A DNA stretch of 62,759 nt. It comes from Patescibacteria group bacterium. GTDB taxonomy: Bacteria > Patescibacteriota > Patescibacteriia > Patescibacteriales > WJLG01. The notes under the pieces were generated by a model. That model had not been told where the DNA came from, searched no databases, and was given only the letters and a program-made list of their open reading frames with translations. Shown here in pieces: positions 10,986-62,759 of this stretch. A program made the position numbers and the translations under genes. The DNA lies in NCBI GenBank assembly GCA_028707065.1, contig JAQTUZ010000008.1, positions 1-62,759 on the forward strand, written 5' to 3'. Position 1 is the stretch's first letter; the number at the start of each line of letters is the position of its first letter.

Positions 10986-10986
10986 T

Positions 10987-11019
10987 TTTTTGTTATCCTG
11001 AGCCCCGGGCGAAGGATCT
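10987..11019 (+). repeat. solo terminus of the TGTCATCCTGAG MITE family
   Basis: ttttgttatcctgagccccgggcgaaggatct; abuts the orphan gene fragment 10947-10985. Confidence 0.75.
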
Positions 11020-12477: not shown

Positions 12478-12527
12478 ATTCCCCTCTAGAGAGGGGTGGA
12501 TCGCCCCTGGCGAGACGGGGTGTGTTA
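12478..12527 (-). repeat. PE-A element, intergenic (HMA-fusion gene / csoR)
   Basis: attcccctctagagaggggtgg-atcgcccctggcgagac-ggggtgtgtta; core identical to the copy at 12954. Confidence 0.9.
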
Positions 12528-12556
12528 TGCCGGTCTGCCAGAAAACGTTTATTAAA

Positions 12557-12829
12557 TTATTTATTAGCCAACTTGCTCACTCTTAAAATTTCCTCGACCA
12601 TCTTCGCTTTCACCTTTTCGTTTTTGCTCGCCATCGCGTTCTTGAAGCAAGTATGCAGATGATTTTCCATCAGCTGCTGATGAGCTGATTTTAAAAGTCC
12701 GATGACCGCCAGATTCTGCTGCATGATATCAATGCAGTATTTATTCTCTTCCGTCATCTTAATAATTTTTTCCACCAGCGATTTGGCTTTTTTGAAACCA
12801 ATCAGCGCTTTTTGTTTCTCGTTAGTCAT
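12557..12829 (-). CDS. csoR: CsoR/RcnR-family metal-sensing repressor
   Basis: 90 aa; C...H-x3-C ligand pattern (KYCIDIMQQ...ENHLHTC); first gene of the cop operon; candidate operator upstream. Confidence 0.85.
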   Translation of the reverse strand: MTNEKQKALIGFKKAKSLVEKIIKMTEENKYCIDIMQQNLAVIGLLKSAHQQLMENHLHTCFKNAMASKNEKVKAKMVEEILRVSKLANK

Positions 12830-12953: not shown

Positions 12954-13005
12954 ATTCCCCTCTAGCAAGAGGGGTGGATCGCCCCTGGCGAGACGGGGTG
13001 TGTTT
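12954..13005 (-). repeat. PE-A element, upstream of the cop promoter
   Basis: attcccctctagcaagaggggtgg-atcgcccctggcgagac-ggggtgtgtttt; near-identical to 12478-12527. Confidence 0.9.
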
Positions 13006-13130
13006 TAGTTTTGTTCAAGCCGAACAAGCGCAATTACATCTCGCTCGTCGCCCCCCCTCATCATGATGATCTTCTTCCCCGCCCTCTTCTTTCTCTTCGC
13101 GCGCTTCAGTTCGGGGATGATGAAATAGAC

Positions 13131-22240: not shown

Positions 22241-22263
22241 AATTATAATCGATTCTTCCGCTG

Positions 22264-22312
22264 TAACACACCCTGCCTCGCTTACGCTCGGCACCCCTCT
22301 CGAGAGGGGACT
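22264..22312 (+). repeat. PE-A element (degenerate), intergenic
   Basis: taacacaccctgcctcgcttacgctcggcacccctctcgagaggggact; forms an inverted pair with 22341-22410. Confidence 0.8.
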
Positions 22313-22340
22313 TCGCAACGAAGAAATCAGCCGGTAAAAA

Positions 22341-22410
22341 GTCCCCTCTAGAGAGGGGTGGCAGTCCGCCGCCTTGTCCGCCTCGGGCGGAGGACTGACG
22401 GGGTGTGTGA
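22341..22410 (-). repeat. PE-A element with extended nested central hairpin
   Basis: gtcccctctagagaggggtgg-cagtccgccgccttgtccgcctcgggcggaggactga-cggggtgtgtga. Confidence 0.85.
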
Positions 22411-22448
22411 AAATCGGCATTAAGATTTTGCAAAATATAATTCAGAAA

Positions 22449-31285: not shown

Positions 31286-31416
31286 TGCGCATGATGCGAA
31301 TCTACGAATTGTTCGCGAATACTATGAATAGATTTAACGAATAACACACCCCGTCCGCGCGGCGCGGCCACCCCTCTCAAGAGGGGAATCAAAACGGTTC
31401 GCGGTATTCGCATTAT
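31286..31416. repeat. R1 hairpin (rpsD/rpoA spacer) with PE-A nested in its loop
   Basis: atgcgcatgatgcgaatctacgaattgttcgcgaatactatgaat ... [PE-A 31343-31389] ... ggttcgcggtattcgcattat. Confidence 0.75.
31343..31389 (+). repeat. PE-A element nested in the loop of an R1 hairpin (rpsD/rpoA spacer)
   Basis: aacacaccccgtccgcgcggcgcggccacccctctcaagaggggaat. Confidence 0.9.
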
Positions 31417-33241: not shown

Positions 33242-33251
33242 TTGATATGAA

Positions 33252-33300
33252 GTCCCCTCCGCGGGAGGGGTGGCGCCGCCTCGGCGACGGGGTGGGTTAC
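33252..33300 (-). repeat. PE-A element between rplM and rpsI
   Basis: gtcccctccgcgggaggggtgg-cgccgcctcggcga-cggggtgggttac. Confidence 0.9.
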
Positions 33301-33827: not shown

Positions 33828-33880
33828 ATTCCCCTCTCGAGAGGGGTGGACTCGCGCCGCGCGAGGACGGGGTGTGTTAC
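33828..33880 (-). repeat. PE-A element just after the rpsI stop
   Basis: attcccctctcgagaggggtgg-actcgcgccgcgcgagga-cggggtgtgttac. Confidence 0.9.
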
Positions 33881-36730: not shown

Positions 36731-36879
36731 TTTTTGTCATCCTGAGGAGTCCGACTTGTCGGACGAGGAAGGATCTAAACAACAGGAAGTTTAAAAGAGC
36801 CGATTACTTTTCTATGGTTCGAAGTTTTTTGCAAATTCCTACAGCATAGATCCTTCGCGCGGCGCTCAGGATGACAAAA
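36731..36879 (-). mobile_element. MITE-like element with TTTTGTCATCCTGAG...GAAGGATCT terminal inverted repeats
   Basis: Left tttttgtcatcctgaggagtccgacttgtcggacgaggaaggatct, right agatccttcgcgcggcgctcaggatgacaaaa; the internal ~70 nt is homologous, in reverse orientation, to the core of 41085-41255. Confidence 0.8.
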
Positions 36880-36934
36880 TAAAAAAGCAGCAATCAGATG
36901 ATCTTGATTGCTGCATTTTGCAGGTTGCTTGCTT

Positions 36935-37429: not shown

Positions 37430-39040
37430 ATGAAAAGGAGGGTGGCTATTTTTATCGCTTGCTGGTTTTTTGCCGGCGGCATCGTTCTTGCTTCGTTTTT
37501 GCCGAAAGACTGGCTGTTTTTCGGCCTTTATTATTTTAGCGCGGCGATAATATTTTCAACCATTGCCGTCGTGTGCTGGAAGAAGAAAAACACGCGCGCC
37601 ATTTTGATTTGGGCGGCTTTTTTGTTTTTGGGAATCTGGCGATTCTCGATAAGTTTGCCGATCGATTCACCAAATAATATTTGGCATTACAACGGCCAAA
37701 AAAGAGAATTGATCGGCCTGGTTTCTTCTGAACCGGCGACGAAAGGGAAAAGTCAGAAGTTAGAAGTATTTCCCCTCCTTTTAAAGGAGGGGGTAGGGGT
37801 GGTTATTGATAGGCAAGCCGATTCGATTGCAACCACTTCCCAGAACCACCCCCAAACCCCTCCTTCGGAAGGAGGGGGGATCCTTGAAAAGGAGGGGCTG
37901 GGGGTGGTTCGGGGTGAGGTTGCAGGCAAGGTCTTGGTCATCGCCGCCGCTTATCCGCAATATGATTATGGCGACGTTCTAAAAATATCTTGTACGCTTA
38001 AGCGTCCGGATAAGTTGGACGATTTTGATTATGAAAAATATTTGGCCGGCAAGGGAATCTATTCGACTTGCAACTTTCCCAAAATAGAAATTTTGTCAGA
38101 TAAAAATTTATCACCGCCGCTATTGGCAAAGAAAAAAAGCCTGACGCGTTTTAGCTGGCTTTGGGGCGGGATTTATCAAATCCGAAAAAAATTAAGCGGC
38201 ACGATCGATAACGGCTTGGCCGAACCGGAAGCCGGACTGCTTAAAGCTTTTATCTTGAACGATCCGACCGTGCCTGATGATTTGAGCGATATTTTCCGCC
38301 AAAGCGGCTTATCGCATATCGTCGCCATTTCCGGCACGCATATCAGCTTGGTGATCGCCATTATTTTTTTCTGCTTGTTATTCCTGGGTTTGAATCGCCG
38401 GCACGCTTTTTGGTTTTGCGTGCCCATTATTTTATTGTACGTGGTGATGGTTGGAGCGCCTGCCTCGGCAACTCGGGCGGGGATTATGGGTTTTTTGGTT
38501 TTGTTGGCTATGTATCTGGGACGTTTGGCGCGATTAGATTATACTTTGGCGCTCGCCGGCGCGGGCATGCTTTTGTTTAATCCGATGCTCGTTATCGCGG
38601 ACGCCGGATTCCAATTATCTTTTTTGGCCGTTCTAGGCATGATTTATCTTTACCCGATTTTTGATAAATGGTTATCAAGGTTTTACGAAATAAAAAACGT
38701 AACACACCCCGCCAAGCGAGGCGCTTGGCACCCCTCTCGAGAGGGGATTTTAAAAATAATTTGCCAGACGGCAGCACTGACGATCGCGGCGCAAGTTTTT
38801 ACCGCGCCGATCTTGATTTTCGGCTTTCACCAAATTTCGCTGGTCGCGCCGATCGCCAATCTGTTCGCGCTTTGGGCCGCGCCATTTATCATGATCACCG
38901 CTTTCATCGCCATGGGCCTAACCTTAATATTTCCCGCCGGTGCAATATATTTTTTCCTGCCCGCGGATATTTTAGTAAAATACTTGATTGCCGTCGCGCA
39001 AATTTCGGCGAGCTTGCCATTTGCTTATTGGAAGTTTTAA
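37430..39040 (+). CDS. comEC: ComEC/Rec2-family DNA uptake channel, lacking the metallo-beta-lactamase domain
   Basis: N-terminal OB-like region (GKVLVIAAAYPQYDYGDVLKISCTLKRP), competence domain (FRQSGLSHIVAISGTHISLV...PASATRAGIM); two repeat-derived in-frame inserts. Confidence 0.85.
   Translation: MKRRVAIFIACWFFAGGIVLASFLPKDWLFFGLYYFSAAIIFSTIAVVCWKKKNTRAILIWAAFLFLGIWRFSISLPIDSPNNIWHYNGQKRELIGLVSSEPATKGKSQKLEVFPLLLKEGVGVVIDRQADSIATTSQNHPQTPPSEGGGILEKEGLGVVRGEVAGKVLVIAAAYPQYDYGDVLKISCTLKRPDKLDDFDYEKYLAGKGIYSTCNFPKIEILSDKNLSPPLLAKKKSLTRFSWLWGGIYQIRKKLSGTIDNGLAEPEAGLLKAFILNDPTVPDDLSDIFRQSGLSHIVAISGTHISLVIAIIFFCLLFLGLNRRHAFWFCVPIILLYVVMVGAPASATRAGIMGFLVLLAMYLGRLARLDYTLALAGAGMLLFNPMLVIADAGFQLSFLAVLGMIYLYPIFDKWLSRFYEIKNVTHPAKRGAWHPSREGILKIICQTAALTIAAQVFTAPILIFGFHQISLVAPIANLFALWAAPFIMITAFIAMGLTLIFPAGAIYFFLPADILVKYLIAVAQISASLPFAYWKF
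37769..37910. repeat. cluster of three PE-B elements inside comEC (in-frame)
   Basis: tttcccctccttttaaaggagggggtaggggtggtt (reverse), gaaccacccccaaacccctccttcggaaggagggggga (forward), tccttgaaaaggaggggctgggggtggttc (reverse); translated ...FPLLLKEGVGVV...NHPQTPPSEGGGILEKEGLGVV. Confidence 0.85.
38699..38749 (+). repeat. PE-A element inside comEC (in-frame, sense)
   Basis: gtaacacaccccgccaagcgaggcgcttggcacccctctcgagaggggatt; translated VTHPAKRGAWHPSREGI. Confidence 0.9.
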
Positions 39041-39570: not shown

Positions 39571-41082
39571 ATGGATTTTCGTTTCAAATTAAGAATAGTC
39601 TGGATAGCTGCGCTGGCCGTGGCGGTTTTTGCGCTGGCGTGGCTGGCTATAATTCCTTTTGGCAAGATTACTTACTTGACAAATTTCAAGGGTTTTAATG
39701 ATTTCATCGGCAAGCTAACGCCCATGGAAAGAATTGTTGCCGAAAAAGACGGCACGCAAGATATTATCGGCGATCCGGCTTATTTTTCTTTGCGCACCCC
39801 GCGGCCATTTAATCAAGCTTTGCTTTCCGTAAAATTCCAAGTTGATCCGAATCTGCCGATCGTCGAGGCCGGAGTTTCCAAGGACGGGCGCACCTGGCAA
39901 TATGATTTGCAGCCGCTCTATAATGCTAAATTGGAAGAGTTGATGGAAAACTGGTTTGTATTAGATGATTCTGTTTTACCAGCGCTAACCCACCCCGCCT
40001 CGCCGGGCTCGGCACCCCTCCCAAGAGGGGACTCCACTGTTCTCCTGCAAAGAAATAAACAATTTGATACGATTGAAGAATTTTTAAAAAATCCTCCCGC
40101 GACCGACAAGATCGCTTTGTATAATTATGATTGGAAAACCGATTATTTATTGCCCGATTATCAGCCGCGGCAAGCTACCTCGACCATGTGCCGGCCGCTG
40201 GTCGGGGCTTATCAGTTTTATACCTACATTAAAAATGAGAATTTGTCCGATGACTTTGTTTTCCAAGATTTGAATAAAAATTTGGATCCGGACCCGATCG
40301 ATGTTTATGTTTATTATCGCGACAAATTGATTTCGAGCGAGCACCTCGACGACGATGGCATTGCTGTTGATAGCGGCGCGCAAAAACCGTGGCGGCATTT
40401 GAAGTTAGATTTGGCCAATTTGCCCGAGGGCGTTTATAAGATCACGGTGCGCGCTAATGGCGATATTGTGACGAGAACGATCACCACCGGACAAAGTAAA
40501 ATGGCTTTTATCAATGCTTTAGCGATTGCCGACGCTCCCGAAGTTTCCTGCGGCCGAAATTTTTTCACGGACGGGCGCACGCTGGCGGTTCAGACTTCGC
40601 ATCCGGATAAATTAGGCAAGATAACCATCAATAAAAATAACGGCAATTCATTTTCCGGCGTTGAGTTGAACATCGATCAAACTTATAAAATATTTACGGT
40701 TAACGATTTGCCGCCGGCTGGCAGTCAGATAATTCTTAATAATGACGGAATTTCGCTTTCCGGCGATGGGCTTTTTTCCCTGTCGGCCGAACAAATGATC
40801 GATCCGCGCGTTAAATCCGTTGATGCCAAATTCGATGCCGACCAGGAAGGCGTGGATTATGTTTTGGCGCGTTATACGCCGCCGGTCAAACAAGGCGATT
40901 GGCTGGTAGCGCAAGCTAACTTTGATCTAACCAACGCTTTCCGGATGTGGAATAAGTATTATTTTTTGATCTCCGCGCCCGGGTTATCCGCCAGCGATCA
41001 GCTTAACGATCAGGTGCGGATCAAGGAAATTAAGGTTGATTTGACCGGCACTTCGTTGTGGAAAAAAATATTTAAGAAATAA
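39571..41082 (+). CDS. hypothetical membrane-anchored extracytoplasmic protein
   Basis: Start trimmed to ATG 39571 (MDFRFKLRIVWIAALAVAVFALAWLAII); one TM then ~470 aa; carries one in-frame PE-A copy; precedes the GT-C cluster. Confidence 0.6.
   Translation: MDFRFKLRIVWIAALAVAVFALAWLAIIPFGKITYLTNFKGFNDFIGKLTPMERIVAEKDGTQDIIGDPAYFSLRTPRPFNQALLSVKFQVDPNLPIVEAGVSKDGRTWQYDLQPLYNAKLEELMENWFVLDDSVLPALTHPASPGSAPLPRGDSTVLLQRNKQFDTIEEFLKNPPATDKIALYNYDWKTDYLLPDYQPRQATSTMCRPLVGAYQFYTYIKNENLSDDFVFQDLNKNLDPDPIDVYVYYRDKLISSEHLDDDGIAVDSGAQKPWRHLKLDLANLPEGVYKITVRANGDIVTRTITTGQSKMAFINALAIADAPEVSCGRNFFTDGRTLAVQTSHPDKLGKITINKNNGNSFSGVELNIDQTYKIFTVNDLPPAGSQIILNNDGISLSGDGLFSLSAEQMIDPRVKSVDAKFDADQEGVDYVLARYTPPVKQGDWLVAQANFDLTNAFRMWNKYYFLISAPGLSASDQLNDQVRIKEIKVDLTGTSLWKKIFKK
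39986..40033 (+). repeat. PE-A element inside ORF 39571-41082 (in-frame, sense)
   Basis: taacccaccccgcctcgccgggctcggcacccctcccaagaggggact; translated LTHPASPGSAPLPRGDS. Confidence 0.9.
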
Positions 41083-41084
41083 TT

Positions 41085-41255
41085 TTTTTGTCATCCTGAG
41101 CGCCGCGCGAAGGATCTATTTTGTAGGAATTGAGAATTTTTTTCGATAAAAATTTTTTAAGGAGTAGTTAAATTTTGCTCGGGCAATAGATCCTTCCTCG
41201 CTCGCCGACCTCGTCCGCCTTGGGCGGAGGCGGCTCGCTCCTCAGGATGACAAAA
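41085..41255 (+). mobile_element. MITE-like element, second full copy
   Basis: tttttgtcatcctgagcgccgcgcgaaggatct ... agatccttcctcgctcgccgacctcgtccgccttgggcggaggcggctcgctcctcaggatgacaaaa; the right terminus contains ATG 41247. Confidence 0.8.
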
Positions 41256-46692: not shown

Positions 46693-47670
46693 ATGATGGG
46701 GAATGAAAAATCGATTTATCCAGGCCCAGATAATGAAAATCCTTCTGCCAACGCCGGATCGTCGGAAAAATTAAAAGATACACCCAAAGAAATTTGTTAT
46801 AATCTGAGCCGGATGATGGCTGATATTGCCGTCAAAGGCAATAAAGAATTTGGAGGTAACGCGATTTTAAATAATGACGCCAGCGTAAACATGGTCCAAT
46901 GGGAAACGGGCAACGGCGGCCCGCATTCTCGGGCAGATAGAAAAAGAGATCGGAAAGTGGTAAATGAGCATCTGCTCCTTTATAGCGGACTTTCGAAAAT
47001 GGAAGAAGGGCCGAAAAGAGACGCGGCGGTCGCCGCCTGGCTGGAGAAAAGGGGATTGAGCATGACAGTTTTGATGGAGCGGTCAATCGCGGCAGCCTGC
47101 AATAAGATTGTCGGTGGTAAATTCATCATCGTTCTGCCGGCGATCTATGATGACATCGTCAACGGCGTTGATAATATGATGGTTAACAAGGAAACCGGCG
47201 ACGTGATTTGCGCTTTTGATGAGATTCGCGAGTACGAAGGTCTTCATCGGGGCGAAGCCGGTCATGAAGAAGGTACTTTAAGAAAAGTTCATTCGGATGA
47301 ATTTGCGGAATTAACCAGAAGGGAGAAGAAAGAAGAAAAGATTATCCGCAAAGCCGAGCGCGGCGGAGCGAAAATCAGGTATGGTTTTGGCAAAGAGGGC
47401 GGCAAATTAGTCAAAAAGGAAATAACCGGCGTGCCGCTGTTTTACGTTTCTTTGGCCGAGAGCGAAACCAAGCGGCTTTTAAATGGAATGGACTATGTTT
47501 CTGATCAGCCGAGCGCCGTTGAGCTGGAAGTTTTTGATAAGCTGATTCTATCTTTTGAAAAGCAGGCGGCAGATATCGGGAAAGCTAGTATTAATTCAGA
47601 CGTGCGGCGCAATCTGGCGAATTTTGAAAAATCATTGGCGGTGATGAAAGAATTGCGGAAGAGGTTTTAA
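46693..47670 (+). CDS. hypothetical protein (325 aa)
   Basis: Long ORF with no recognisable family; its last 21 codons are duplicated in diverged form at 48086-48151. Confidence 0.55.
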   Translation: MMGNEKSIYPGPDNENPSANAGSSEKLKDTPKEICYNLSRMMADIAVKGNKEFGGNAILNNDASVNMVQWETGNGGPHSRADRKRDRKVVNEHLLLYSGLSKMEEGPKRDAAVAAWLEKRGLSMTVLMERSIAAACNKIVGGKFIIVLPAIYDDIVNGVDNMMVNKETGDVICAFDEIREYEGLHRGEAGHEEGTLRKVHSDEFAELTRREKKEEKIIRKAERGGAKIRYGFGKEGGKLVKKEITGVPLFYVSLAESETKRLLNGMDYVSDQPSAVELEVFDKLILSFEKQAADIGKASINSDVRRNLANFEKSLAVMKELRKRF

Positions 47671-47708
47671 TAAATATACCCCTCCAAAATTTTCAAAAGT
47701 AAAAAACA

Positions 47709-48047
47709 ATGAAAATAACAAAAAAATCACACGAAACATTTGTACGTGAAGATGCACACGATGGAAGTGGTGGCAGAAAGTTGCTATTGGCTGACAATGA
47801 AATGAAAAATGTACAAGGAATGACATGTGGATTTTTGCCAGCTGGTGCGAAATTTGCCTGGCACACCCATGAAAAATTGAATGAAGTCATGTATGTGCTG
47901 AAGGGACAAGGTACAGTTCGTGATGAAGATGGTACTTATCCATATAATGTTGGAGATATTTTTATTTTTCCAGAGGGTATTTTCCATGAAATTGAAAACA
48001 AATCTATGGAAGAGAACGAATATATATTTGTAAGAGTTTATATATAA
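47709..48047 (+). CDS. cupin-domain protein
   Basis: GAKFAWHTHEKLNEVMYVLKGQG...GDIFIFPEGIFHEIEN (cupin motifs 1 and 2); AT-rich. Confidence 0.75.
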   Translation: MKITKKSHETFVREDAHDGSGGRKLLLADNEMKNVQGMTCGFLPAGAKFAWHTHEKLNEVMYVLKGQGTVRDEDGTYPYNVGDIFIFPEGIFHEIENKSMEENEYIFVRVYI

Positions 48048-48085
48048 GCTAGTCGGGGGTGCCATAGTCCTGACTGCGCCCGCCT

Positions 48086-48151
48086 CGGAGGAATATCGGT
48101 AATTTTGAAAAATCATTGTTGGAAATAGCCGAATTAAGAAAAAAGTTTTAA
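48086..48151 (+). pseudogene. orphan 3'-end fragment (21 codons plus stop) homologous to the end of ORF 46693-47670
   Basis: RRNIGNFEKSLLEIAELRKKF-stop versus RRNLANFEKSLAVMKELRKRF-stop at 47608-47670; includes the identical 18-mer aattttgaaaaatcattg. Confidence 0.75.
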
Positions 48152-48154
48152 AAT

Positions 48155-48305
48155 ATTCCCCTCCCTGGAGGGGTGCCGAGCCCGGCGAGGCGGGGTGGGC
48201 TATTCCCCTCCGCGGGAGGGGTGGACGCGCCGCGCGGACGGGGTGGGTTTCATTGGCGTTAATTCCCCTCCGCGGGAGGGGTGCCCGAAGGGCGGGGTGG
48301 GTTTC
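48155..48305 (-). repeat. three tandem PE-A elements upstream of the DUF559 gene
   Basis: Copies at 48155-48200, 48202-48251 and 48262-48305, each attcccctcc(ctgg/gcgg)gaggggtg-[GC palindrome]-cggggtggg(c/ttt). Confidence 0.9.
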
Positions 48306-48330
48306 AATAAAAAATTAATCAAGGAGGGGA

Positions 48331-48747
48331 ATGTTTAAAAGAAAAATATTACCATGCAACCCGAAGTTAATTGAGCTGGCCAAAAAATTAAGGAAGCAGG
48401 GGATTTTATCCGAAGTAATTTTGTGGAATCATTTGAAAGGCGGCAAACGGTTTGGCCATGATTTTCATCGCCAAAAACCAATTGATAATTATATTGTTGA
48501 TTTTTTCTCGCCCGACTTAATGTTGGCGATTGAAATCGATGGAATATCGCACGGATATAAATTTGATCAAGACGAAGAAAGAGATAGGCGGCTGGGGACG
48601 TTAGATATTAAAGTTTTAAGATTTACCGATAGCAGTGTTAAAAATAATTTGGACGGAGTTTTAGATGAAATAGATTGCTGGATAAAAGAAAATTTTCAAA
48701 CCCACCCTGCCACCGAGGCGGTGGCACCACTCCCAAGAGGGGAATAA
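48331..48747 (+). CDS. DUF559 (Vsr/restriction-endonuclease-like) domain protein
   Basis: LRKQGILSEVILWNHLKGGKRFGHDFHRQKPIDNYIVDFFSPDLMLAIEIDGISH...LDIKVLRFTDSSV; last 15 codons and the stop come from a PE-A repeat. Confidence 0.85.
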   Translation: MFKRKILPCNPKLIELAKKLRKQGILSEVILWNHLKGGKRFGHDFHRQKPIDNYIVDFFSPDLMLAIEIDGISHGYKFDQDEERDRRLGTLDIKVLRFTDSSVKNNLDGVLDEIDCWIKENFQTHPATEAVAPLPRGE

Positions 48748-48796
48748 TGCCCACCCCGTCCGGCCAGGGGCCGTCCACCCCTCCAGGGAGGGGAAT
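48698..48796 (+). repeat. two tandem PE-A elements at/after the DUF559 3' end, inverted relative to 48155-48305
   Basis: 48698-48745 aaacccaccctgccaccgaggcggtggcaccactcccaagaggggaat (supplies THPATEAVAPLPRGE-stop); 48749-48796 gcccaccccgtccggccaggggccgtccacccctccagggaggggaat. Confidence 0.9.
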
Positions 48797-53142: not shown

Positions 53143-53784
53143 ATGAAAAGAGTCTTTATAATTCATGGCTGGGAGGCCGATCCGGGAAGCAATTGGTTCC
53201 CTTGGTTGAAAGATGAGTTAATCAAAAAAGGCATTGAGGCCGAAGTTCCGACCATGCCGAATTCGGCGCATCCTCTGTGCGCCGAATGGGTTGCTTATTT
53301 AAAAAAGATCGTCGGCAAAACCGACAAAGATACTTTTTTAGTCGGTCACAGCTTGGGCGTAATCGCTATTTTACGTTATCTGGAATCAATGGCGGCGAAG
53401 GAAAAGATCGGCGGCGCGATTTTGGTCGCCGGTTTCCCTGAACCATTGCCGGCAAGCGACGGAGGAGATTTTTCCGAACTGAATAATTTTTTTGCTAAAC
53501 CGTTGGATTATGAAAAAATAAAAAATAATGTCAGTAATAGACCCACCCCGCCTCCGTCAGGGACGGAGTCACCCCTCCCGGGGAGGGGACAAATTTTTTC
53601 CGGCTTCGTGGCAATCCACTCCGACAATGATCCTTATGTGCCGCTGGCCAACGGAAAAATTTTGCAAAAAAAATTAGGCGCTGAGTTGATTGTGATTTCG
53701 GGCGGCGGCCATTTGAATGCCGGCGACGGATTTTTCCAATTTCCTTTGGTCTTAGAAAAGATTTTGCGATGGACTAATAATTAA
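53143..53784 (+). CDS. YdeN/RBBP9-type alpha/beta serine hydrolase, copy 2 (with PE-A insert)
   Basis: MKRVFIIHGW, GHSLGV, SDNDPYVPL, GGGHL; tandem paralogue of 52569-53138 with a ~19-aa extra segment encoded by PE-A. Confidence 0.75.
   Translation: MKRVFIIHGWEADPGSNWFPWLKDELIKKGIEAEVPTMPNSAHPLCAEWVAYLKKIVGKTDKDTFLVGHSLGVIAILRYLESMAAKEKIGGAILVAGFPEPLPASDGGDFSELNNFFAKPLDYEKIKNNVSNRPTPPPSGTESPLPGRGQIFSGFVAIHSDNDPYVPLANGKILQKKLGAELIVISGGGHLNAGDGFFQFPLVLEKILRWTNN
53539..53590 (+). repeat. PE-A element inside hydrolase copy 2 (in-frame, sense)
   Basis: agacccaccccgcctccgtcagggacggagtcacccctcccggggaggggac; translated RPTPPPSGTESPLPGRG; absent from the tandem paralogue. Confidence 0.9.
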
Positions 53785-53831: not shown

Positions 53832-56573
53832 ATGGAAACAGCATATCCGCTTAGTGAAAAAAAATTAGATAAGATTTTTAATCCGCAAACGATTGCGGTG
53901 ATTGGCGCTTCCGACCGCGAAGGCGGCGTTGGTAATGCGCTGATGAAGAATCTGATCGGCAATAATTTCGGCGGCATTGTCTATCCGGTCAATCCTAACC
54001 GCGCCAGCGTGCAGGGGATCAAAGCTTATCTGAGGATTGGCGATATTCCTGATAAGATTGATCTGGCGATCATTGCCACTCCGGCGCCGACCGTTCCGGG
54101 CTTGGCGCTCGAATGCGGACAGGCCGGCGTGGCCGGTTTGATCATCATTTCTTCCGGTTTTGATGAGATCGGCGCCAAGGGCAAGAAAATGAGCGAAGAA
54201 ATTTCCTCGATCGCCAAAGAATACGGCATGCGCGTCATCGGTCCGAATTGTTTGGGATTTATCCGGCCGTCGATCAATCTGAACGCCAGTTTTGCCAACA
54301 AGATGGCTTTGCCCGGCCATATCGCTTTTATTTCCCAGTCCGGCGCGCTCTGCACTTCGATTTTGGACTGGTCGATCAAGAACAATGTCGGTTTTTCCCA
54401 GTTCGTTTCGATTGGTTCGGCGATCGATATCACTTATCATGATTTGATCGATTATTTTGGTGATGACCCGCACACTTCCAGTATCTTGATCTATATGGAG
54501 TCGCTCACTGAAGCGAGGAAATTTATGAGCGCGGCGCGAGCATTTTCTCGCCAGAAGCCGATCGTGGTCTTGAAAGTCGGGCGCACTGAAGCCGGATCAA
54601 AAGCCGCCAAATCACATACCGGCGCCTTGACCGGCAATGATGCGATTTATGACGCGGCTTTTGAGCGCGCCGGCATCATCCGGGTTGATGGCGCGCTGGA
54701 TCTTTTCCATGTCGCCAAGATGCTTTCGATGCAGTCACGGCCGGCGGATAATCGCGTGGCGGTAATCACTAATGCCGGTGGACCGGGCGTAATTGCGGCT
54801 GATCGTTTGGCTTTGAAAGGCGGGCGGTTGGCGCCATTAGCCCACACTACCGTTTCCGAATTAAAAAAAATTCTGCCGTCGGCGGCTTCCACGGCCAATC
54901 CAGTGGATATTTTAGGTGATGCTGATCCGCACCGTTATCGCGCCGCGGTGGAATTATGTCTGGCTGATCCGAACGTTGACGCGGCTTTGATAATCTTGAC
55001 GCCGCAGGAAATGACCAGTCCGACCGACGTGGCGCGGCAGATCGTTTCGATCAAGAATAAAACCGGCAAGACCATGTTCGCGTCCTGGATGGGCGGCGAT
55101 GACGTGGCCGAAGGCCGGGAGATTTTGGAAAAAGGTCATATCCCGATCTACCGCACGCCGGAAGAAGCCGTGGATATATTTATGTACGTGGATAGTTATC
55201 GGCGGCGTCTGGAATTTTTGAAAGAAACTCCGGGTTCGGTGCCGCACGCTTTCAAGCCCAAGACGGAAAAAAATCGCGAGCTCGTGGAAAAAGTCATCGC
55301 GGACGGCCGGACAGTAATGACTGAAGCCGAGGCCAAGGAAATGATCGCTAATTATGGAATTCCGGTAGCCAAGAATGGCACGGCTAATTCGGCGTCTGAA
55401 GCCGGTGCGATCGCCGAAGGGATCGGAATGCCTGTGGTGATGAAAATTTTGTCGCCGGATATTTTACACAAGACCGATATCGGCGGCGTGAAATTGAATA
55501 TCAATTCGCGCGCTGAAGCGGAAGCGGCTTATCATGAAATCATGATTAACGTCCGGAAACCCACCCCGGCCTTCGGCCACCCCTCCCGAGGAGGGGAAGG
55601 CGCCAAGAAAGGCGCGCCCAAAGCCAAGATCGATGGTATTTTTATCGAGGCGATGACCAAGAAGCGCTATGAACTTTTGATCGGCTGCAAGAAAGATGAG
55701 GTTTTCGGGCCGGCGATAGTTTTCGGCATGGGCGGCGTGGCCGTGGAAGTCTTCCGCGACACGGCCGTCGGCTTGCCGCCGTTGAACATGTCTTTGGCTC
55801 TGAAGATGATTCAGGAAACGAAAATTTATAAATTACTCGAAGGTTATCGCGGCATGCCCGGAGTTGATATCGAATCGATCCAATTTTTGCTTTATAAATT
55901 CGCTTATCTGGTCGCTGACTTTCCCGAGATCAAGGAATTGGATATTAATCCTTTCGCGGTTGATGAGAACGGGGGAGTGGTGCTTGATGCCAAAGTTATT
56001 CTGGATGAAAAAGTCTTGGGCGTAAAACACAAACCATACGCTCATCTGGTAATTTCGCCTTATCCCAAAGAATTTGAAACAACTTTGAAGATCAAGGATG
56101 GCAAGAAGGTTTTTGTCCGGGCTTTGCGCCCCGAGGATGAAGAATTAGTGGCCGGATTCTTCCATCATCTTTCACCCGCGGCGCAAAAGGACCGTTATTT
56201 GCAAGTGATCAAAAAGATCGACCATGAGTTTTTATTGCGCTTCACTCAGAATGATTATGACCGCGAGATCGGTTTGGAAGCGGAAATTTCCGCGGGCGGC
56301 AAAAGCGAAATGATCGGCGCCGTCAGATTGGTCGTTGATCCTTATAACGAGAATGCCAAGCTGGCGGCGGTAGTCGTTGACCGCTGGCAGAATAAAGGCC
56401 TGGGCAGCCAATTGATCGATCATATGCTCTCGATCGCTAAAGCTCGCGGCATCAAAAAAGTCTGGGGAGAATTCTTCCCGACCAATAAACGGATCATCAA
56501 AATTTTAGAGAAACGAAATTTTACCATCAAAGCCCGGGGGAAGATTATGATCGGAGAGCTGGAACTAGAATAA
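53832..56573 (+). CDS. ADP-forming acetyl-CoA synthetase (alpha+beta) fused to a C-terminal GNAT acetyltransferase (Pat/PatZ-like architecture)
   Basis: IAVIGASDREGGVG CoA-binding N-terminus, KSHTGALTG His loop, ATP-grasp (PVVMKILSPDILHKTDIGGV), C-terminal GNAT (VVVDRWQNKGLGSQLIDHM). Confidence 0.9.
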   Translation: METAYPLSEKKLDKIFNPQTIAVIGASDREGGVGNALMKNLIGNNFGGIVYPVNPNRASVQGIKAYLRIGDIPDKIDLAIIATPAPTVPGLALECGQAGVAGLIIISSGFDEIGAKGKKMSEEISSIAKEYGMRVIGPNCLGFIRPSINLNASFANKMALPGHIAFISQSGALCTSILDWSIKNNVGFSQFVSIGSAIDITYHDLIDYFGDDPHTSSILIYMESLTEARKFMSAARAFSRQKPIVVLKVGRTEAGSKAAKSHTGALTGNDAIYDAAFERAGIIRVDGALDLFHVAKMLSMQSRPADNRVAVITNAGGPGVIAADRLALKGGRLAPLAHTTVSELKKILPSAASTANPVDILGDADPHRYRAAVELCLADPNVDAALIILTPQEMTSPTDVARQIVSIKNKTGKTMFASWMGGDDVAEGREILEKGHIPIYRTPEEAVDIFMYVDSYRRRLEFLKETPGSVPHAFKPKTEKNRELVEKVIADGRTVMTEAEAKEMIANYGIPVAKNGTANSASEAGAIAEGIGMPVVMKILSPDILHKTDIGGVKLNINSRAEAEAAYHEIMINVRKPTPAFGHPSRGGEGAKKGAPKAKIDGIFIEAMTKKRYELLIGCKKDEVFGPAIVFGMGGVAVEVFRDTAVGLPPLNMSLALKMIQETKIYKLLEGYRGMPGVDIESIQFLLYKFAYLVADFPEIKELDINPFAVDENGGVVLDAKVILDEKVLGVKHKPYAHLVISPYPKEFETTLKIKDGKKVFVRALRPEDEELVAGFFHHLSPAAQKDRYLQVIKKIDHEFLLRFTQNDYDREIGLEAEISAGGKSEMIGAVRLVVDPYNENAKLAAVVVDRWQNKGLGSQLIDHMLSIAKARGIKKVWGEFFPTNKRIIKILEKRNFTIKARGKIMIGELELE
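55557..55599 (+). repeat. PE-A element inside the ACD-GNAT gene (in-frame, sense)
   Basis: aaacccaccccggccttcggccacccctcccgaggaggggaag; translated KPTPAFGHPSRGGEG. Confidence 0.9.
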
Positions 56574-56972: not shown

Positions 56973-58676
56973 GTGAAAATAATTAGAAAAAATAAGGAAA
57001 TCGCGGTTTTTATCCTGTTTCTGATCATTGGGTTGGCCATTTACGCCAACTCTTTTGGCAACCAATTTTTTTGGGATGATGATGACGTGATCGTCAATAA
57101 TGTCTATGTCCAAAATTTTCAGCTTGATAAATTTTTCACTCAGAACGAAATTGCCGGCGCTTTCGGGCAAATTTCTAATTACTGGCGTCCGCTCCTGCTG
57201 GTTTCTTTCGCGCTTGATTATAAAATTTGGGGATTGGTTCCGTTCGGCTTTCATCTGACCAATACGCTGCTGCATATTTTGGCCGCTTGGCTGGTATTTA
57301 TTTTTTTATATCAACTGATCGAATTATTTTTGGCCAGGCAAACCGCCGCAGAAGAACCACCCCCAGACCCCTCCTTCCGAAGGAGGGGGGCGCTGCTGGC
57401 ATTTTTGCCGGCGCTGTTTTTTCTGATCCATCCGCTGCAGACCGAAGCCGTGACTTACGTTTCCGGCCGCGGCGATCCTTGGGCGGCCGTCTGGTCGCTT
57501 TTGACCTTGATTTTTTATGTTGTGTTTCGCAACAACGGCCGATGGCGCTTTTATTGGGGGGCTTTGATTTTTTTCGCCGCCGCGCTTTTAGTGAAAGAAC
57601 AGGCGATTTATCTGCCTTTGCTTATCCTTTTGCTTGAAGCGGTTTTTTATTCCATCGATTCCCGCAAAAAAATCATAAAACTTATCAAAAATGTCGCGGC
57701 TTTCTTTGCCTTGGCGGCGGCTTATTTTTTGGCGCGTTTCACTTTCTTGAATTTTAATCATTTTTTATCCGGGTCGGTTAATTTGGTAAACAGTGATTAT
57801 CATCGCAGTCTGGCGCAAAGAGCTTATACTTTTTGTTTGGTGAGCTTGGATTACCTGCGCTTGCTTCTGGTGCCGACCGGTTTGCACATGGAAAGAGAAA
57901 TTACGCCAGTGGAGCATTTTTGGTCCTGGCCGGTAATTACTTTTATCATTTTGGTTGCGGTGGCGGCGATCGTCGCGTTTAAAACCTGGCGGAAAAATCG
58001 GCTCGTGGCTTTCGGGCTCGGCTGGTTCGCCATTACTCTCTTGCCCCATGCCAATTTAGTGGAAACCAACCGGCCGATGTATGAGCACTGGCTTTATTTG
58101 CCTATGGTCGGTTTTTGGCTGGCGCTGTTTTGCCTGATTTTCATTTTGGCGCCGGCAGAGTCTCGCGTAGCGGACTCTGCCGATTTGCCGGGATTTCGGC
58201 AGAGTCCCCGAGGCGGGAGACTCTGCCGGAGCAAATCGATCAGAGTCTGGCTGAAGCGGATTTTTTGTGTTATGCTGATCGCTTGCGTGATTTTTTTCTC
58301 GTTTTTGACGATCAGGCGCAACCGCGACTGGCATGACCCGATAACTTTTTACGAAAAAAATTTAAGCTACGTGCCCGACAGTTTTATTGAGCGCACTAAT
58401 TTGGGCATGGCTTATGACGCTGTCGGACGCTTCGCGGAGGCGATCGTTCAATACCGAACGGCGATCGCCATCGCTGATATTTATCCGCAAGCGCATTATG
58501 ATCTGGCCAATAGTTTGGTGAACGTGAAGCAATACGACGAGGCGGAAAAGGAATATCGGCGCGCCATCGAGATGAGCCCCAAATTCGGCCTGGCGTATCA
58601 GAATTTGTACAATCTTTATATGTATCTTGGCGAAAAAGATAAAGCGGAAAAAATATTAAAAGAAATTAACAAGTAA
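56973..58676 (+). CDS. TMTC/PMT_2-like GT-C membrane glycosyltransferase with C-terminal TPR repeats
   Basis: GTG start; first loop NQFFWDDDDVIVNN; more than 10 TM; C-terminal TPR units (NLGMAYDAVGRFAEAIVQYRTAI..., AHYDLANSLVNVKQYDEAEKEYRRAIE...). Confidence 0.75.
   Translation: MKIIRKNKEIAVFILFLIIGLAIYANSFGNQFFWDDDDVIVNNVYVQNFQLDKFFTQNEIAGAFGQISNYWRPLLLVSFALDYKIWGLVPFGFHLTNTLLHILAAWLVFIFLYQLIELFLARQTAAEEPPPDPSFRRRGALLAFLPALFFLIHPLQTEAVTYVSGRGDPWAAVWSLLTLIFYVVFRNNGRWRFYWGALIFFAAALLVKEQAIYLPLLILLLEAVFYSIDSRKKIIKLIKNVAAFFALAAAYFLARFTFLNFNHFLSGSVNLVNSDYHRSLAQRAYTFCLVSLDYLRLLLVPTGLHMEREITPVEHFWSWPVITFIILVAVAAIVAFKTWRKNRLVAFGLGWFAITLLPHANLVETNRPMYEHWLYLPMVGFWLALFCLIFILAPAESRVADSADLPGFRQSPRGGRLCRSKSIRVWLKRIFCVMLIACVIFFSFLTIRRNRDWHDPITFYEKNLSYVPDSFIERTNLGMAYDAVGRFAEAIVQYRTAIAIADIYPQAHYDLANSLVNVKQYDEAEKEYRRAIEMSPKFGLAYQNLYNLYMYLGEKDKAEKILKEINK
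57354..57390 (+). repeat. PE-B element inside the TMTC-like gene (in-frame)
   Basis: gaaccacccccagacccctccttccgaaggagggggg; translated EPPPDPSFRRRG. Confidence 0.85.
58154..58227 (+). repeat. PE-F: two GGCAGAGTC...GACTCTGCC hairpins inside the TMTC-like gene (in-frame)
   Basis: ggcagagtctcgcgtagcggactctgcc (58154-58181) and ggcagagtccccgaggcgggagactctgcc (58198-58227); translated AESRVADSADLPGFRQSPRGGRLC. Confidence 0.85.
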
Positions 58677-61104: not shown

Positions 61105-62759
61105 ATGAAGAACATCAGAAATTTTTGCATCATCGCCCATATCGACCACGGCAAATCCACTTTTTCCGACCGGCTGCTGGAATTGACCGGCACGATCGAA
61201 AAGCGGAAAATGCGCGAGCAGTTCCTCGATAAATTGGATCTGGAGCGCGAGCGCGGCATCACCATCAAATTAAAACCCGTCACCATGCATTGGGAGGGGT
61301 ATATTTTGAATTTGATCGATACGCCCGGGCACGTGGATTTTTCTTATGAAGTTTCCCGCTCGCTCGCGGCCGTGGAAGGCGCGATTTTACTGATTGACGC
61401 CACCCAGGGAATTCAGGCGCAGACTTTAGCTAATTTATATTTGGCAATCAATGAAAATTTGACTGTCGTGCCGGTGATCAATAAAATCGATCTGCCGGCC
61501 GCTGATGTGCCGAAAGTTAAAAAGGAAATAATTCATCTGATCGGCTGCAAAGAAGAAGAAATTTTATTGGCTTCGGGCAAAACCGGCGAAGGCGTGGAAC
61601 AAGTCTTGCGCGAAGTGATCGCCAAGGTTCCGGCCCCGGATAAATTTGTTAGATGTTCTGATTTGCCGCGTGGAATATCCGGCGCTAACCCACCCCGTCA
61701 GGCCGACGCGGCCTGCCACCCCTCCCGAGAGGGGAATCCCACCCGGGCGCTGATCTTTGATTCCAATTATGACGAATACAAAGGCGTGGTGGCCCATGTC
61801 CGCGTGATGGATGGCGCTTTTAAAAAAGGCGATAAGATAAAATTGTATAACACCAAAACCGTCAGTGAAGCTTTGGATGTGGGAATTTTTAATCCCGAAT
61901 ATCAGCCGACCGGAGAATTAAGCACGGGCGAAGTCGGCTATATCGTGACCAGCTATAAGAACGTTACTGAATGCGCGGTCGGCGATACGGTTACGACCGT
62001 GGCTGATTTTGATAAGATCGAACCGTTGAAAGGTTATGCCGAGGTCAAACCCATGGTCTTTGCCGGAGTTTTTCCCCGCGAAGGCGATGATTTTCAGGAA
62101 TTGCGCGAAGCCATGGATCGCTTAAAATTGAACGACGCCTCGCTCTCTTATGAACCGGAACATTCCGAAGCTTTGGGTTTTGGTTTCCGCTGCGGCTTTT
62201 TGGGGCTTTTGCATCTGGAAATTTTTCAAGAAAGATTGAGCCGCGAATTCAATTTGAATCTGATCGTTACGGTGCCAAGCGTGGCCTATAAAGTTTTCAA
62301 AAGAAACGGCGAAGAAGTAATTATTCGTACGCCGCAAAAACTTCCTGGCCCAACCGAGATCGACCACGTTGAAGAACCTTGGGTAGCGCTCGACGTCATC
62401 GTGCCCAAAGATTATATCGGCAAAGTAATGGAACTGGCCGTGGATAAAAAGGGAATTTACAAAAATACCGAGTATCTTGACGAGTCGAGAGTAATTTTGC
62501 ATTATGATCTGCCCATGGCTTCGATCTTGACTGATTTTTATGATAAGATAAAAAGCGCGAGTTCCGGATTTGCTTCGATCAATTATGAATTTTTGGATTA
62601 TCGTCCGGCTAAAGTGGTCCGGCTGGATATTTTGGTGGGCGAAGAGCCGATCGAAGCATTATCGACGATCGTTTATGAAGATGAGGCTTTCCGGCAAGGA
62701 CGGGCCGTGGTGGAAATTTTGAAAGATACCTTGCCCCGGCAGATGTTTGTGGTTAAATT
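61105..62759 (+). CDS. lepA: translation elongation factor 4 (LepA), 3'-truncated by the window end
   Basis: Not in the ORF track because it is open-ended. IRNFCIIAHIDHGKST, DTPGHVDF, NKIDL, then ALIFDSNYDEYKGVVAHVRVMDG...; carries an in-frame PE-A copy at the G-domain/domain II junction. Confidence 0.95.
   Translation, partial: MKNIRNFCIIAHIDHGKSTFSDRLLELTGTIEKRKMREQFLDKLDLERERGITIKLKPVTMHWEGYILNLIDTPGHVDFSYEVSRSLAAVEGAILLIDATQGIQAQTLANLYLAINENLTVVPVINKIDLPAADVPKVKKEIIHLIGCKEEEILLASGKTGEGVEQVLREVIAKVPAPDKFVRCSDLPRGISGANPPRQADAACHPSREGNPTRALIFDSNYDEYKGVVAHVRVMDGAFKKGDKIKLYNTKTVSEALDVGIFNPEYQPTGELSTGEVGYIVTSYKNVTECAVGDTVTTVADFDKIEPLKGYAEVKPMVFAGVFPREGDDFQELREAMDRLKLNDASLSYEPEHSEALGFGFRCGFLGLLHLEIFQERLSREFNLNLIVTVPSVAYKVFKRNGEEVIIRTPQKLPGPTEIDHVEEPWVALDVIVPKDYIGKVMELAVDKKGIYKNTEYLDESRVILHYDLPMASILTDFYDKIKSASSGFASINYEFLDYRPAKVVRLDILVGEEPIEALSTIVYEDEAFRQGRAVVEILKDTLPRQMFVVK
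61686..61737 (+). repeat. PE-A element inside lepA (in-frame, sense)
   Basis: taacccaccccgtcaggccgacgcggcctgccacccctcccgagaggggaat; translated ANPPRQADAACHPSREGN just before ALIFDS. Confidence 0.9.

Follow-up and report, generated by a model that had tools for sequence, protein, structure and literature searches.

A DUF559 gene between inverted PE-A repeats in a Patescibacteria contig: one copy of a widespread unit and a candidate nuclease-plus-repeat partnership

We analyzed a stretch of 62,759 nucleotides from a Patescibacteria group bacterium (GenBank assembly GCA_028707065.1, contig JAQTUZ010000008.1, positions 1 to 62,759; hereafter the window), which carries a dispersed structured repeat, denoted PE-A, and a single gene of the DUF559 family. 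The region at positions 48155-48796 is one copy of a widespread minimal unit that consists of a DUF559 gene between inverted repeats whose G-rich boxes face the gene. We tentatively favour, with somewhat less than even confidence, a reading of this unit as a selfish partnership of the REPIN/RAYT kind, in which the nuclease would bind and cut the repeats and spread their solitary copies. The link makes DUF559 the first candidate enzyme partner for the BoxC/PIT/TM repeats, a class that was already known; the connection itself is new, and we found no paper that links DUF559, or the Escherichia coli DUF559 gene ycjD, to these repeats.

The DUF559 gene (48331-48747, plus strand) encodes a putative endonuclease of 138 amino acids and is enclosed by five PE-A copies of ∼44-50 nt each. 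Three of these lie upstream on the plus strand: copy 1 (48155-48203) comprises a first hairpin CCCCTCC/GGAGGGG, a second hairpin and the G-box GGGGTGGG; copy 2 (48202-48251), which follows in tandem, was assigned by pattern and DNA fold; and copy 3 (48262-48305), with a short second hairpin, ends 25 nt before the ATG. The two downstream copies are inverted (minus strand). Copy 4 (48697-48745) provides the last 16 codons (residues 123-138) and the stop codon of the gene and has no counterpart in the closest syntenic relative, denoted L201; copy 5 (48746-48796) is the ortholog of the single downstream copy of that relative. The original prediction, made from the letters of the window, had described three upstream and two inverted downstream copies, an array ending 25 nt before the start codon and a gene end supplied by the first downstream copy; all of this was borne out, and its coordinates agree with ours to within 3 nt. 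It had further proposed that the Shine-Dalgarno/start region resembles an element terminus. A stretch of 21 nt is indeed 86% complementary to the outer end of copy 1, but the closest relative retains it only in part, and the resemblance is probably incidental. The neighbours of the DUF559 gene are a cupin gene, a small open reading frame (ORF) and an acetyl-CoA synthetase gene; the gene itself is intergenic and does not lie within an intron or intein.

PE-A has the consensus (A/T)TTCCCCTC(C/T)-N2-4-(G/A)GAGGGGTG-variable GC hairpin-(G/A)GGGTG(G/T)G. Read as blocks, the arm (A/T)TTCCCCTC(C/T) is followed by a 2-4-nt loop, the arm (G/A)GAGGGG, the dinucleotide TG, a second hairpin, the box GGGGTG(T/G)G and a final TT. 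The second hairpin, 10-45 nt long and GC-rich, varies in sequence with its pairing preserved, that is, its arms covary; DNA folding of PE-A formed both hairpins and left the G-box unpaired. The whole window contains 18 copies, 9 on the plus and 9 on the minus strand. Their abundance is not due to chance because the 8-mer GGGGTGGG alone occurs 11 times against an expectation of 0.84. No Rfam family matched anywhere in the window at gathering thresholds, hits on the region with E-values up to 10 being chance-level matches only, and a tRNA search found none. Integron attC sites and CRISPR were considered as identities for PE-A and dropped for lack of resemblance.

The protein encoded by the ORF at 48331-48747 matches the Pfam profile DUF559 (PF04480) over amino acids 14-115 with an E-value of 2.1e-24 (86 bits; cut-off 20.6), the sole further Pfam match being a weak one to MTES_1575. 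A look-up by exact sequence returned no record of this protein. Its match to NCBIfam PRK09767 (YcjD) is weak as well (44.6 bits, threshold 218), and for this reason we do not class the protein, on profile scores, as a YcjD equivalog. Searched against the PDB, a profile of 35 homologues matched the Neisseria DUF559 protein 3HRL (E = 3.7e-25) and the catalytic domain of the homing endonuclease I-Bth0305I (E = 1.5e-3). The AlphaFold2 model has a mean pLDDT (predicted local distance difference test) of 84, with amino acids 9-121 well folded and the repeat-encoded residues 122-138 forming a low-confidence, disordered tail. Foldseek aligned the model to the same two structures, with template modelling scores on the target of 0.89 for 3HRL (E = 3.5e-8) and 0.79 for the I-Bth0305I domain; matches with weak E-values included mitoribosomal proteins of Toxoplasma and Tetrahymena, which we take to be RAP-like, RNA-binding proteins. 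Residues Arg47, Gln48, Lys49, Pro50, Asp57, Glu68, Asp70, Gly71 and His74 are invariant across the 35 homologues, and Asp57, Glu68, Asp70 and His74 are, by analogy, the putative catalytic residues. The modelled nuclease fold looks intact, and activity is predicted. Both the profile match and Foldseek support the Vsr-like rather than HUH fold that had been claimed, and the putative catalytic residues are present.

With Vsr the protein has in common the PD-(D/E)xK-like fold and the way in which acidic and histidine residues are placed, and many databases name such genes 'very-short-patch-repair endonuclease'. Membership in the Vsr family proper, and with it Vsr-Dcm patch repair, was rejected: Pfam Vsr is not among the matches, and no cytosine methyltransferase gene lies adjacent. 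An HUH Y1 transposase (TnpA_REP) as the enclosed enzyme is ruled out by the Pfam matches and the Vsr-like fold. DUF559 is a very large protein family, and we know of no function assigned to it.

The first clue that the arrangement is general came from the homologous proteins, many of whose odd ends are the repeat translated in two orientations: tails reading ..THPxxxxHPSQEGN or ..PPLSRGE, and some N-termini reading ..SPLERGGRGADGVC. We took 80 DUF559 loci from named genomes of more than ten phyla, including Verrucomicrobia, Bacteroidota, Brocadiales, Nitrospirota, Ignavibacteria/Chlorobiota, Cloacimonadota, the candidate phyla radiation (CPR), Cyanobacteria and Firmicutes. In almost all of them a forward copy precedes the gene and a reverse copy lies at its end or shortly beyond, so that the G-boxes face the gene. 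The strict PE-A pattern yielded 150 copies in about 48 kb beside the genes and 24 copies in 1,010 kb situated >1 kb away, an enrichment of ∼130-fold. With a looser finder, scored on 73 loci, a copy in the right orientation turned up on one side or both in 64 loci and on both in 38; the remaining 9 carry degenerate or variant copies by eye. The expectation that DUF559 genes are systematically flanked by inverted PE-A copies therefore holds for this subfamily and across many phyla. Alignment scores of inverted versus direct flanks were uninformative, as the direct scores were inflated by extra copies and long direct repeats. A published screen for programmed inversions found 'DUF559 domain-containing protein' enriched among its predicted targets with an odds ratio of 14 (PMC9881135), an enrichment that the inverted repeats flanking DUF559 genes probably explain.

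Repeats and genes are also matched in type. In 37 of 40 loci both flanks carry one and the same G-box subtype, and in 25 of 27 cases a distant solitary copy has the subtype that flanks the DUF559 gene of its locus. On the DUF559 protein tree the repeat subtype is clustered, with about 11 switches against 22.5 expected. In Pontibacter fetidus, two DUF559 paralogs separated by 5 kb each have their own repeat variant: CCCCTCT..AGAGGGG followed by GGGGTGTG for one, CCCCCTT..AAGGGGG followed by GGGGGATG for the other. Strict specificity of protein clades for repeat types is not claimed, given the misplaced grouping of the second Pontibacter paralog (see below).

The repeat shows a mirror relationship between two of its blocks: the purine arm of the first hairpin and the G-box are mirror images in which A is replaced by T. 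In all 18 window copies, AGAGGGG is paired with GGGGTGT, or GGAGGGG with GGGGTGG. Across loci, arm and G-box covary, with 197 concordant cases (AGA/TGT 110, AGG/TGG 87) versus 11 discordant ones. Further variants combine AAGGGGG with GGGGGAT, GGAGGGG with GGGGAGG, and GGGAGAGGGG with GGGGTGAGGG, and the lengths of the G-runs agree too. Among protein-ascertained loci, position 3 obeys a G*G, T*A or A*A rule in 72.5% of cases, compared with 45% in permutations and 37-39% in shifted registers. Mirror covariation of this kind is the hallmark of an antiparallel purine-motif triplex built from one strand, in which a third G/T or G/A block follows the purine arm in mirror order (G*G-C, T*A-T, A*A-T). 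A G-quadruplex, or an alternative Watson-Crick pairing of the G-box, would fit the equal G-runs but not the A-to-T and G-to-G mirror covariation.

In these respects PE-A fits the known class of intrastrand triplex repeats, and its ability to form a triplex is predicted from its sequence. The class was named BoxC in the 1990s (Bachellier et al.), PIT elements in 2000 (Hoyne & Maher) and TM, with TMECO as its E. coli family, by Holder et al. in 2015 (PMC4666352). Triplex motifs occur in hundreds of genomes and have been tied to local genomic instability; E. coli TMECO forms a triplex in vitro, as judged by circular dichroism and nuclear magnetic resonance, and Holder et al. found neither a common function of the flanking genes nor a transposase or integrase for the motifs (PMC4666352). 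PE-A shares with the class the block order of C-rich arm, loop, G-rich arm, short loop (often TTA) and mirroring G-rich block (class II purine motif), as well as dispersal in both orientations, frequent inverted pairs and local rearrangement nearby. Many Bacteroidota DUF559 flanks read GAGGGG-TTA-GGGGTGTG, which is the layout of TMECO type A, and a TMECO-like copy adjoins ycjD in E. coli. PE-A differs from TMECO in stem length (6-7 nt versus 9 nt) and in its second loop, which here is a covarying hairpin of 10-45 nt; the published finder accepts loops of 1-6 nt and would miss PE-A. In addition, some PE-A copies lie in frame within genes; TMECO has been reported to be always intergenic (PMC4666352). 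The TMECO pattern CCCTCNCCC-N3-6-GGGNGAGGG-N3-GGGNGAGGG does not match PE-A, whose stems are shorter and different and whose second loop is long, and on these sequence grounds we assign PE-A to a different family of the same structural class.

Comparison with L201 (GCA_035506055.1, DATJQC010000111.1; 76-85% nucleotide identity to the window) shows recent changes of the repeats, and presence/absence polymorphism of PE-A, which had been predicted, is seen between these relatives. The two share gene order and have DUF559 at the same site, with three upstream and two downstream copies in the window versus two and one in L201. A 54-nt in-frame PE-A insertion in the Ser_hydrolase gene (53538-53591, minus strand) is absent from the L201 ortholog, and a copy in frame within a 516-aa ORF (39985-40033, minus strand) has a same-site counterpart in L201 with a different second hairpin. 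No target-site duplication is visible at the Ser_hydrolase insertion. The recombination scar that had been postulated at 47608-48151 stands insofar as a 71-nt direct repeat of 70% identity (47605-47675 and 48086-48156) brackets the cupin gene (47709-48047), a gene missing from L201. Each 71-nt copy contains the 3' end of the upstream 325-aa gene and the first arm of a PE-A hairpin. The break of the duplication falls within hairpin 1, and of the two copies the downstream one seems to be the ancestral end of the gene. NCBI labels L201 'Candidatus Nanoarchaeia archaeon'; the shared genes look bacterial (ComEC in both, HlyD-type and UvrD-type genes in the window), and the label or the bin may be wrong.

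Elsewhere, the DUF559 gene and its two flanking repeats behave, by alignment, as a relocating unit. Flavobacterium DUF559 genes that are 81-85% identical sit in unrelated contexts, and their alignment runs exactly from outer repeat end to outer repeat end, with no target-site duplication evident at the ends of the cassettes. One Flavobacterium genome contains three tandem DUF559 cassettes, and in other genomes direct repeats of 54-264 nt, up to 100% identical and built of repeat doublets, bracket DUF559 (tandem cassettes and bracketing repeats at loci L053, 10001-11668; L026, 6417-6954; L020, L023, L068 and L069). Between metagenome-assembled genomes of different phyla, DUF559 reaches 74-80% nucleotide identity (L003/L012, L009/L032 and L003/L040), for example between Planctomycetota and Nitrospirota, and L003 and L012 share an extra flank match of 1.1 kb; contamination of the bins aside, such identity suggests horizontal transfer. 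In most close relatives the gene is syntenic and single-copy, as between the window and L201, in Pontibacter, in Brocadiaceae and in several Bacteroidales pairs.

A metagenome scan that started from the repeat pattern and was blind to genes returned at least 120 stretches with at least 163 copies. Among the matches listed, DUF559 was on the inner side of 8 of the 132 copies that had enough sequence, so singlets and doublets far outnumber gene-linked copies. Convergent and divergent gene-free doublets were common among the listed matches, with convergent spacers of 16-105 nt; in gene-sized convergent pairs, no gene other than DUF559 was seen between the copies. In 50 viral-contig stretches (444 kb) that hold the repeat, DUF559 was not found beside any copy; viral contigs contained only distant DUF559 relatives (at most 47% identity, partial matches) and gave no sign of phages carrying the subfamily.

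In E. coli K-12, ycjD is the one annotated DUF559 gene in the stretch examined. A half-element overlaps the 3' end of this gene, and a complete TMECO-like copy is found 155 nt downstream. In the same locus (L279, 5290-5440) ∼45 nt of the ycjD 3' end are duplicated downstream and followed by partial triplex-motif fragments, which is the same kind of rearrangement as the duplicated gene end of the window. In an evenly spaced sample of genomes, the repeat was present at 10-26 other places in ycjD-positive genomes (median 18, n=37) and at 1-18 in ycjD-negative ones (median 8, n=23; Mann-Whitney p=3e-9). This contrast agrees with a nuclease that spreads the repeats but was rejected as decisive evidence, as the presence of ycjD follows phylogroups: eefRABCD replaces ycjD in phylogroups B2, D, E and F (PMC12817139).

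The constant architecture, the agreement of subtypes, the variants peculiar to each paralog and the sharpness of the boundaries would be best accounted for if the flanks were functional ends, or cognate sites, of the nuclease. In the partnership that we favour, the nuclease would recognise its cognate repeat, probably in the folded hairpin-plus-third-strand form on transiently single-stranded DNA, and would nick or cut there, and host replication or repair would complete the process. The repeat-gene-repeat cassette would be the autonomous form, and the gene-free singlets and doublets, including the in-frame insertions of the window, would be non-autonomous derivatives acted on in trans. Such a system would work like REPIN/RAYT, or like a MITE (a miniature transposable element with inverted repeats) and its parent element, except that a PD-(D/E)xK-type nuclease would take the part of the HUH or DDE transposase. 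It is possible, if doubtful, that the intrastrand triplex is the structure recognised by the Vsr-fold nuclease and that the whole is an ancient cross-phylum selfish system, one that would account for how BoxC/PIT/TM repeats arose and spread and for the in-frame insertions like those of Rickettsia palindromic elements (RPEs), and would give DUF559 a first function.

The likeness to REPs and RAYTs that had been drawn at the outset is sound for the arrangement: one nuclease gene lies between inverted copies of the structured repeat that is dispersed in its genome, singlets and inverted doublets abound, the gene is often syntenic in close relatives, and paralogs have repeat variants of their own. 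The differences lie in the enzyme, a Vsr-fold DUF559 protein here and an HUH Y1 transposase there, and in the repeat: PE-A lacks the GTAG/CGTC tag, starts with (A/T)TTCCCCTC, ends with GGGGTG(T/G)GTT and contains a triplex-type third block. In addition, the PE-A core sequence is conserved across phyla, and DUF559 shows signs of relocation and horizontal transfer. Inverted ends are shared with terminal-inverted-repeat transposons and MITEs, but neither a target-site duplication nor a DDE enzyme (Pfam) was found. RPEs are short structured repeats that sit in frame within protein-coding genes and have no evident transposase close by. PE-A resembles these and other MITE-like repeats in its short, structured in-frame insertions in coding genes, and its convergent doublets resemble internally deleted elements; it differs in having a candidate partner enzyme and in showing no visible target-site duplication, and the likeness is one of description.

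Several observations weigh against a nuclease that spreads the repeats. The repeat is found in all 5,426 complete E. coli genomes (median 18 places) and ycjD in only 3,378; the repeats persist in the 2,048 genomes without ycjD and show that they can do so for long. In two divergent genomes that carry ycjD the places number only 11-12, as in the ycjD-negative genomes ranked next to them, and the E. coli contrast is not independent evidence, since ycjD presence follows phylogroups and so reflects very few events. In the window, PE-A has no bias by replication strand (9 plus, 9 minus; GC skew uniformly positive), and both GTGTG- and GTGGG-type solitary copies occur, with GTGGG copies flanking its only DUF559 gene. 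The second Pontibacter paralog does not cluster with proteins that share its repeat type. A nuclease of 120 amino acids cannot perform strand transfer, so that spread would have to rely on host functions, and neither a target-site duplication nor any other mechanistic signature was found at the informative insertion. As to the triplex, Holder et al. saw no footprint of it in vivo (PMC4666352).

Because the gene and its two flanking repeats relocate as a unit, a parasite of the homing-endonuclease kind is a serious rival to mobilisation in trans, if on balance an unlikely one. DUF559 would then cut gene-free repeat pairs, and recombinational repair from a repeat-gene-repeat donor would copy the gene in, with the repeats serving as homology arms or landing pad; the repeats would spread otherwise, for example by replication slippage or by capture at triplex-caused breaks. 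The nearest characterised relative of DUF559 is the catalytic domain of I-Bth0305I (PDB 3R3P), a free-standing homing endonuclease with which it shares a related nuclease core, a small selfish-looking gene, sharp unit bounds and patchy cross-phylum similarity. The bounds of the relocating unit coincide exactly with the outer repeat ends, gene-free convergent doublets, which are possible empty sites, are common, and the nucleotide identity of 74-80% between phyla suggests horizontal spread. The persistence of the repeats in E. coli lineages without ycjD would also be expected, and ycjD occupies the sapF-fabI site instead of eefRABCD in phylogroups A/B1/C and in ST69 and ST182, for which at least two independent eef losses have been inferred (PMC12817139). 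Against homing, we saw no pair of filled and empty doublets at one site among close relatives, the closest relative L201 being filled, and the gene is syntenic and single-copy in most of them. It lies between genes, flanked by repeats and not by a split target gene, outside any intron, intein or conserved target gene, and in the convergent doublets, whose spacers range between 16 and 105 nt, a conserved palindromic site is not evident.

We think it improbable that DUF559 is instead a host caretaker, a structure-specific nuclease that deals with hairpins or triplexes at stalled forks or during repair and whose flanks act as sensor or regulator of its own expression or are just a trace of co-inheritance. 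In favour of such a role, its fold is that of the repair nickase Vsr; repeats of this class stop polymerase in vitro and mark loci prone to instability (PMC4666352); many lineages keep the gene in stable synteny; and rearrangements lie beside repeats both in the window (47605-47675 and 48086-48156) and in E. coli (the duplicated ycjD 3' end). A caretaker function leaves unexplained why the bracketing is inverted and fixed in more than ten phyla, why the homology of relocated copies ends at the repeat ends and why two paralogs in one genome have their own repeat variants, and earlier work found no promoter or terminator activity of such repeats (cited in PMC4666352). Very unlikely, finally, is an association that is passive, with repeats gathering around a dispensable small gene and carrying it, or one at the level of RNA, with DUF559 as a Vsr-fold, RAP-like RNA-binding or processing factor and the repeats as RNA elements of the transcript. 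The weak Foldseek matches to mitoribosomal proteins, the complementarity to be expected between the two flanks (5' and 3') of a single transcript and the varying number of repeats near the gene are compatible with it. It is opposed by the ∼130-fold enrichment, the conserved orientation and the matched subtypes, by the presence of DUF559 alone inside gene-sized convergent pairs among the metagenome matches listed, and by solitary copies in both orientations relative to transcription; no Rfam family matched, and purine-motif triplexes are reported to be unable to form in RNA (PMC4666352).

The remaining PE-A copies are scattered over the window. Five of its genes contain PE-A in frame, in all five with the C-rich strand as the coding strand, and thereby gain peptides such as THPxxxxHPSREG. 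Besides the two genes described above, these are a P-type ATPase gene (8467-10818, minus strand) with a solitary copy of the GTGTG subtype (9217-9269, plus), ComEC (38699-38749, minus), and an ADP-forming acyl-CoA synthetase-like gene, in which the copy lies in the ATP-grasp domain and splits the Pfam match in two (55556-55599, minus). Pattern matches identified solitary intergenic copies at 12478-12528 (plus) and 31341-31389 (minus) and a solitary copy at 61685-61737 (minus). A further solitary intergenic copy at 12954-13006 (plus) brackets, together with that at 12478, a CsoR-like gene in direct orientation. The claim that the DUF559 gene is the only gene enclosed by PE-A is thus correct for inverted copies and fails for direct ones. 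The CsoR-like gene (12557-12829, minus) encodes a metal-sensing repressor and is near genes that include a heavy-metal P-type ATPase. A divergent doublet occupies 22263-22411 (22263-22312, minus; 22340-22411, plus, with a long second hairpin). It is overlapped by the annotated N-terminus of a UvrD/PcrA-type helicase (ORF 22374-24956), which contains an RNase_T exonuclease domain (amino acids 496-648) inside its UvrD_C region. Two solitary plus-strand copies accompany the gene for ribosomal protein S9, one (33251-33300) just upstream of it or within its annotated N-terminus and the other (33828-33880) 5 nt past it.

The window holds two other short repeats. PE-B, a second family, is found at 37771-37806 (plus), 37844-37880 (minus, with a partial copy to 37910) and 57355-57390 (minus), inside ComEC and the ORF at 56973-58676. 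It has the layout CCCCTCCTT..AAGGAGGGG, a 3-nt linker and GGGG(G)TGGTT, and the mirror (triplex) rule holds over 5-6 positions. The third, AGATCCTTCGCGCGGCGCTCAGGATGAC followed by an A-run, is located at 10986-11019 (minus), 36848-36881 (plus) and 41084-41117 (minus). In L201 a copy of this type (10281-10320) is located at the 3' end of a small GIY-YIG nuclease gene, which could be another pairing of a nuclease with a repeat.

Taken together, the pairing of DUF559 with BoxC/PIT/triplex repeats, which have been catalogued for about 30 years in hundreds of genomes without known function, origin or partner protein, turns the problem of the repeats and that of the protein family into experiments that are feasible in E. 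coli, Pontibacter and Flavobacterium. For annotation, translation of the repeat explains odd proline/glycine-rich protein tails such as ..THPxxxHPSxEG and ..PPLSRGE. If the nuclease does act on the repeats, the system would be a second, mechanistically different long-lived intragenomic replicator of the REPIN/RAYT type and a rare case of a protein that reads a DNA triplex; if the triplex is what DUF559 recognises, E. coli ycjD would provide a ready experimental model.

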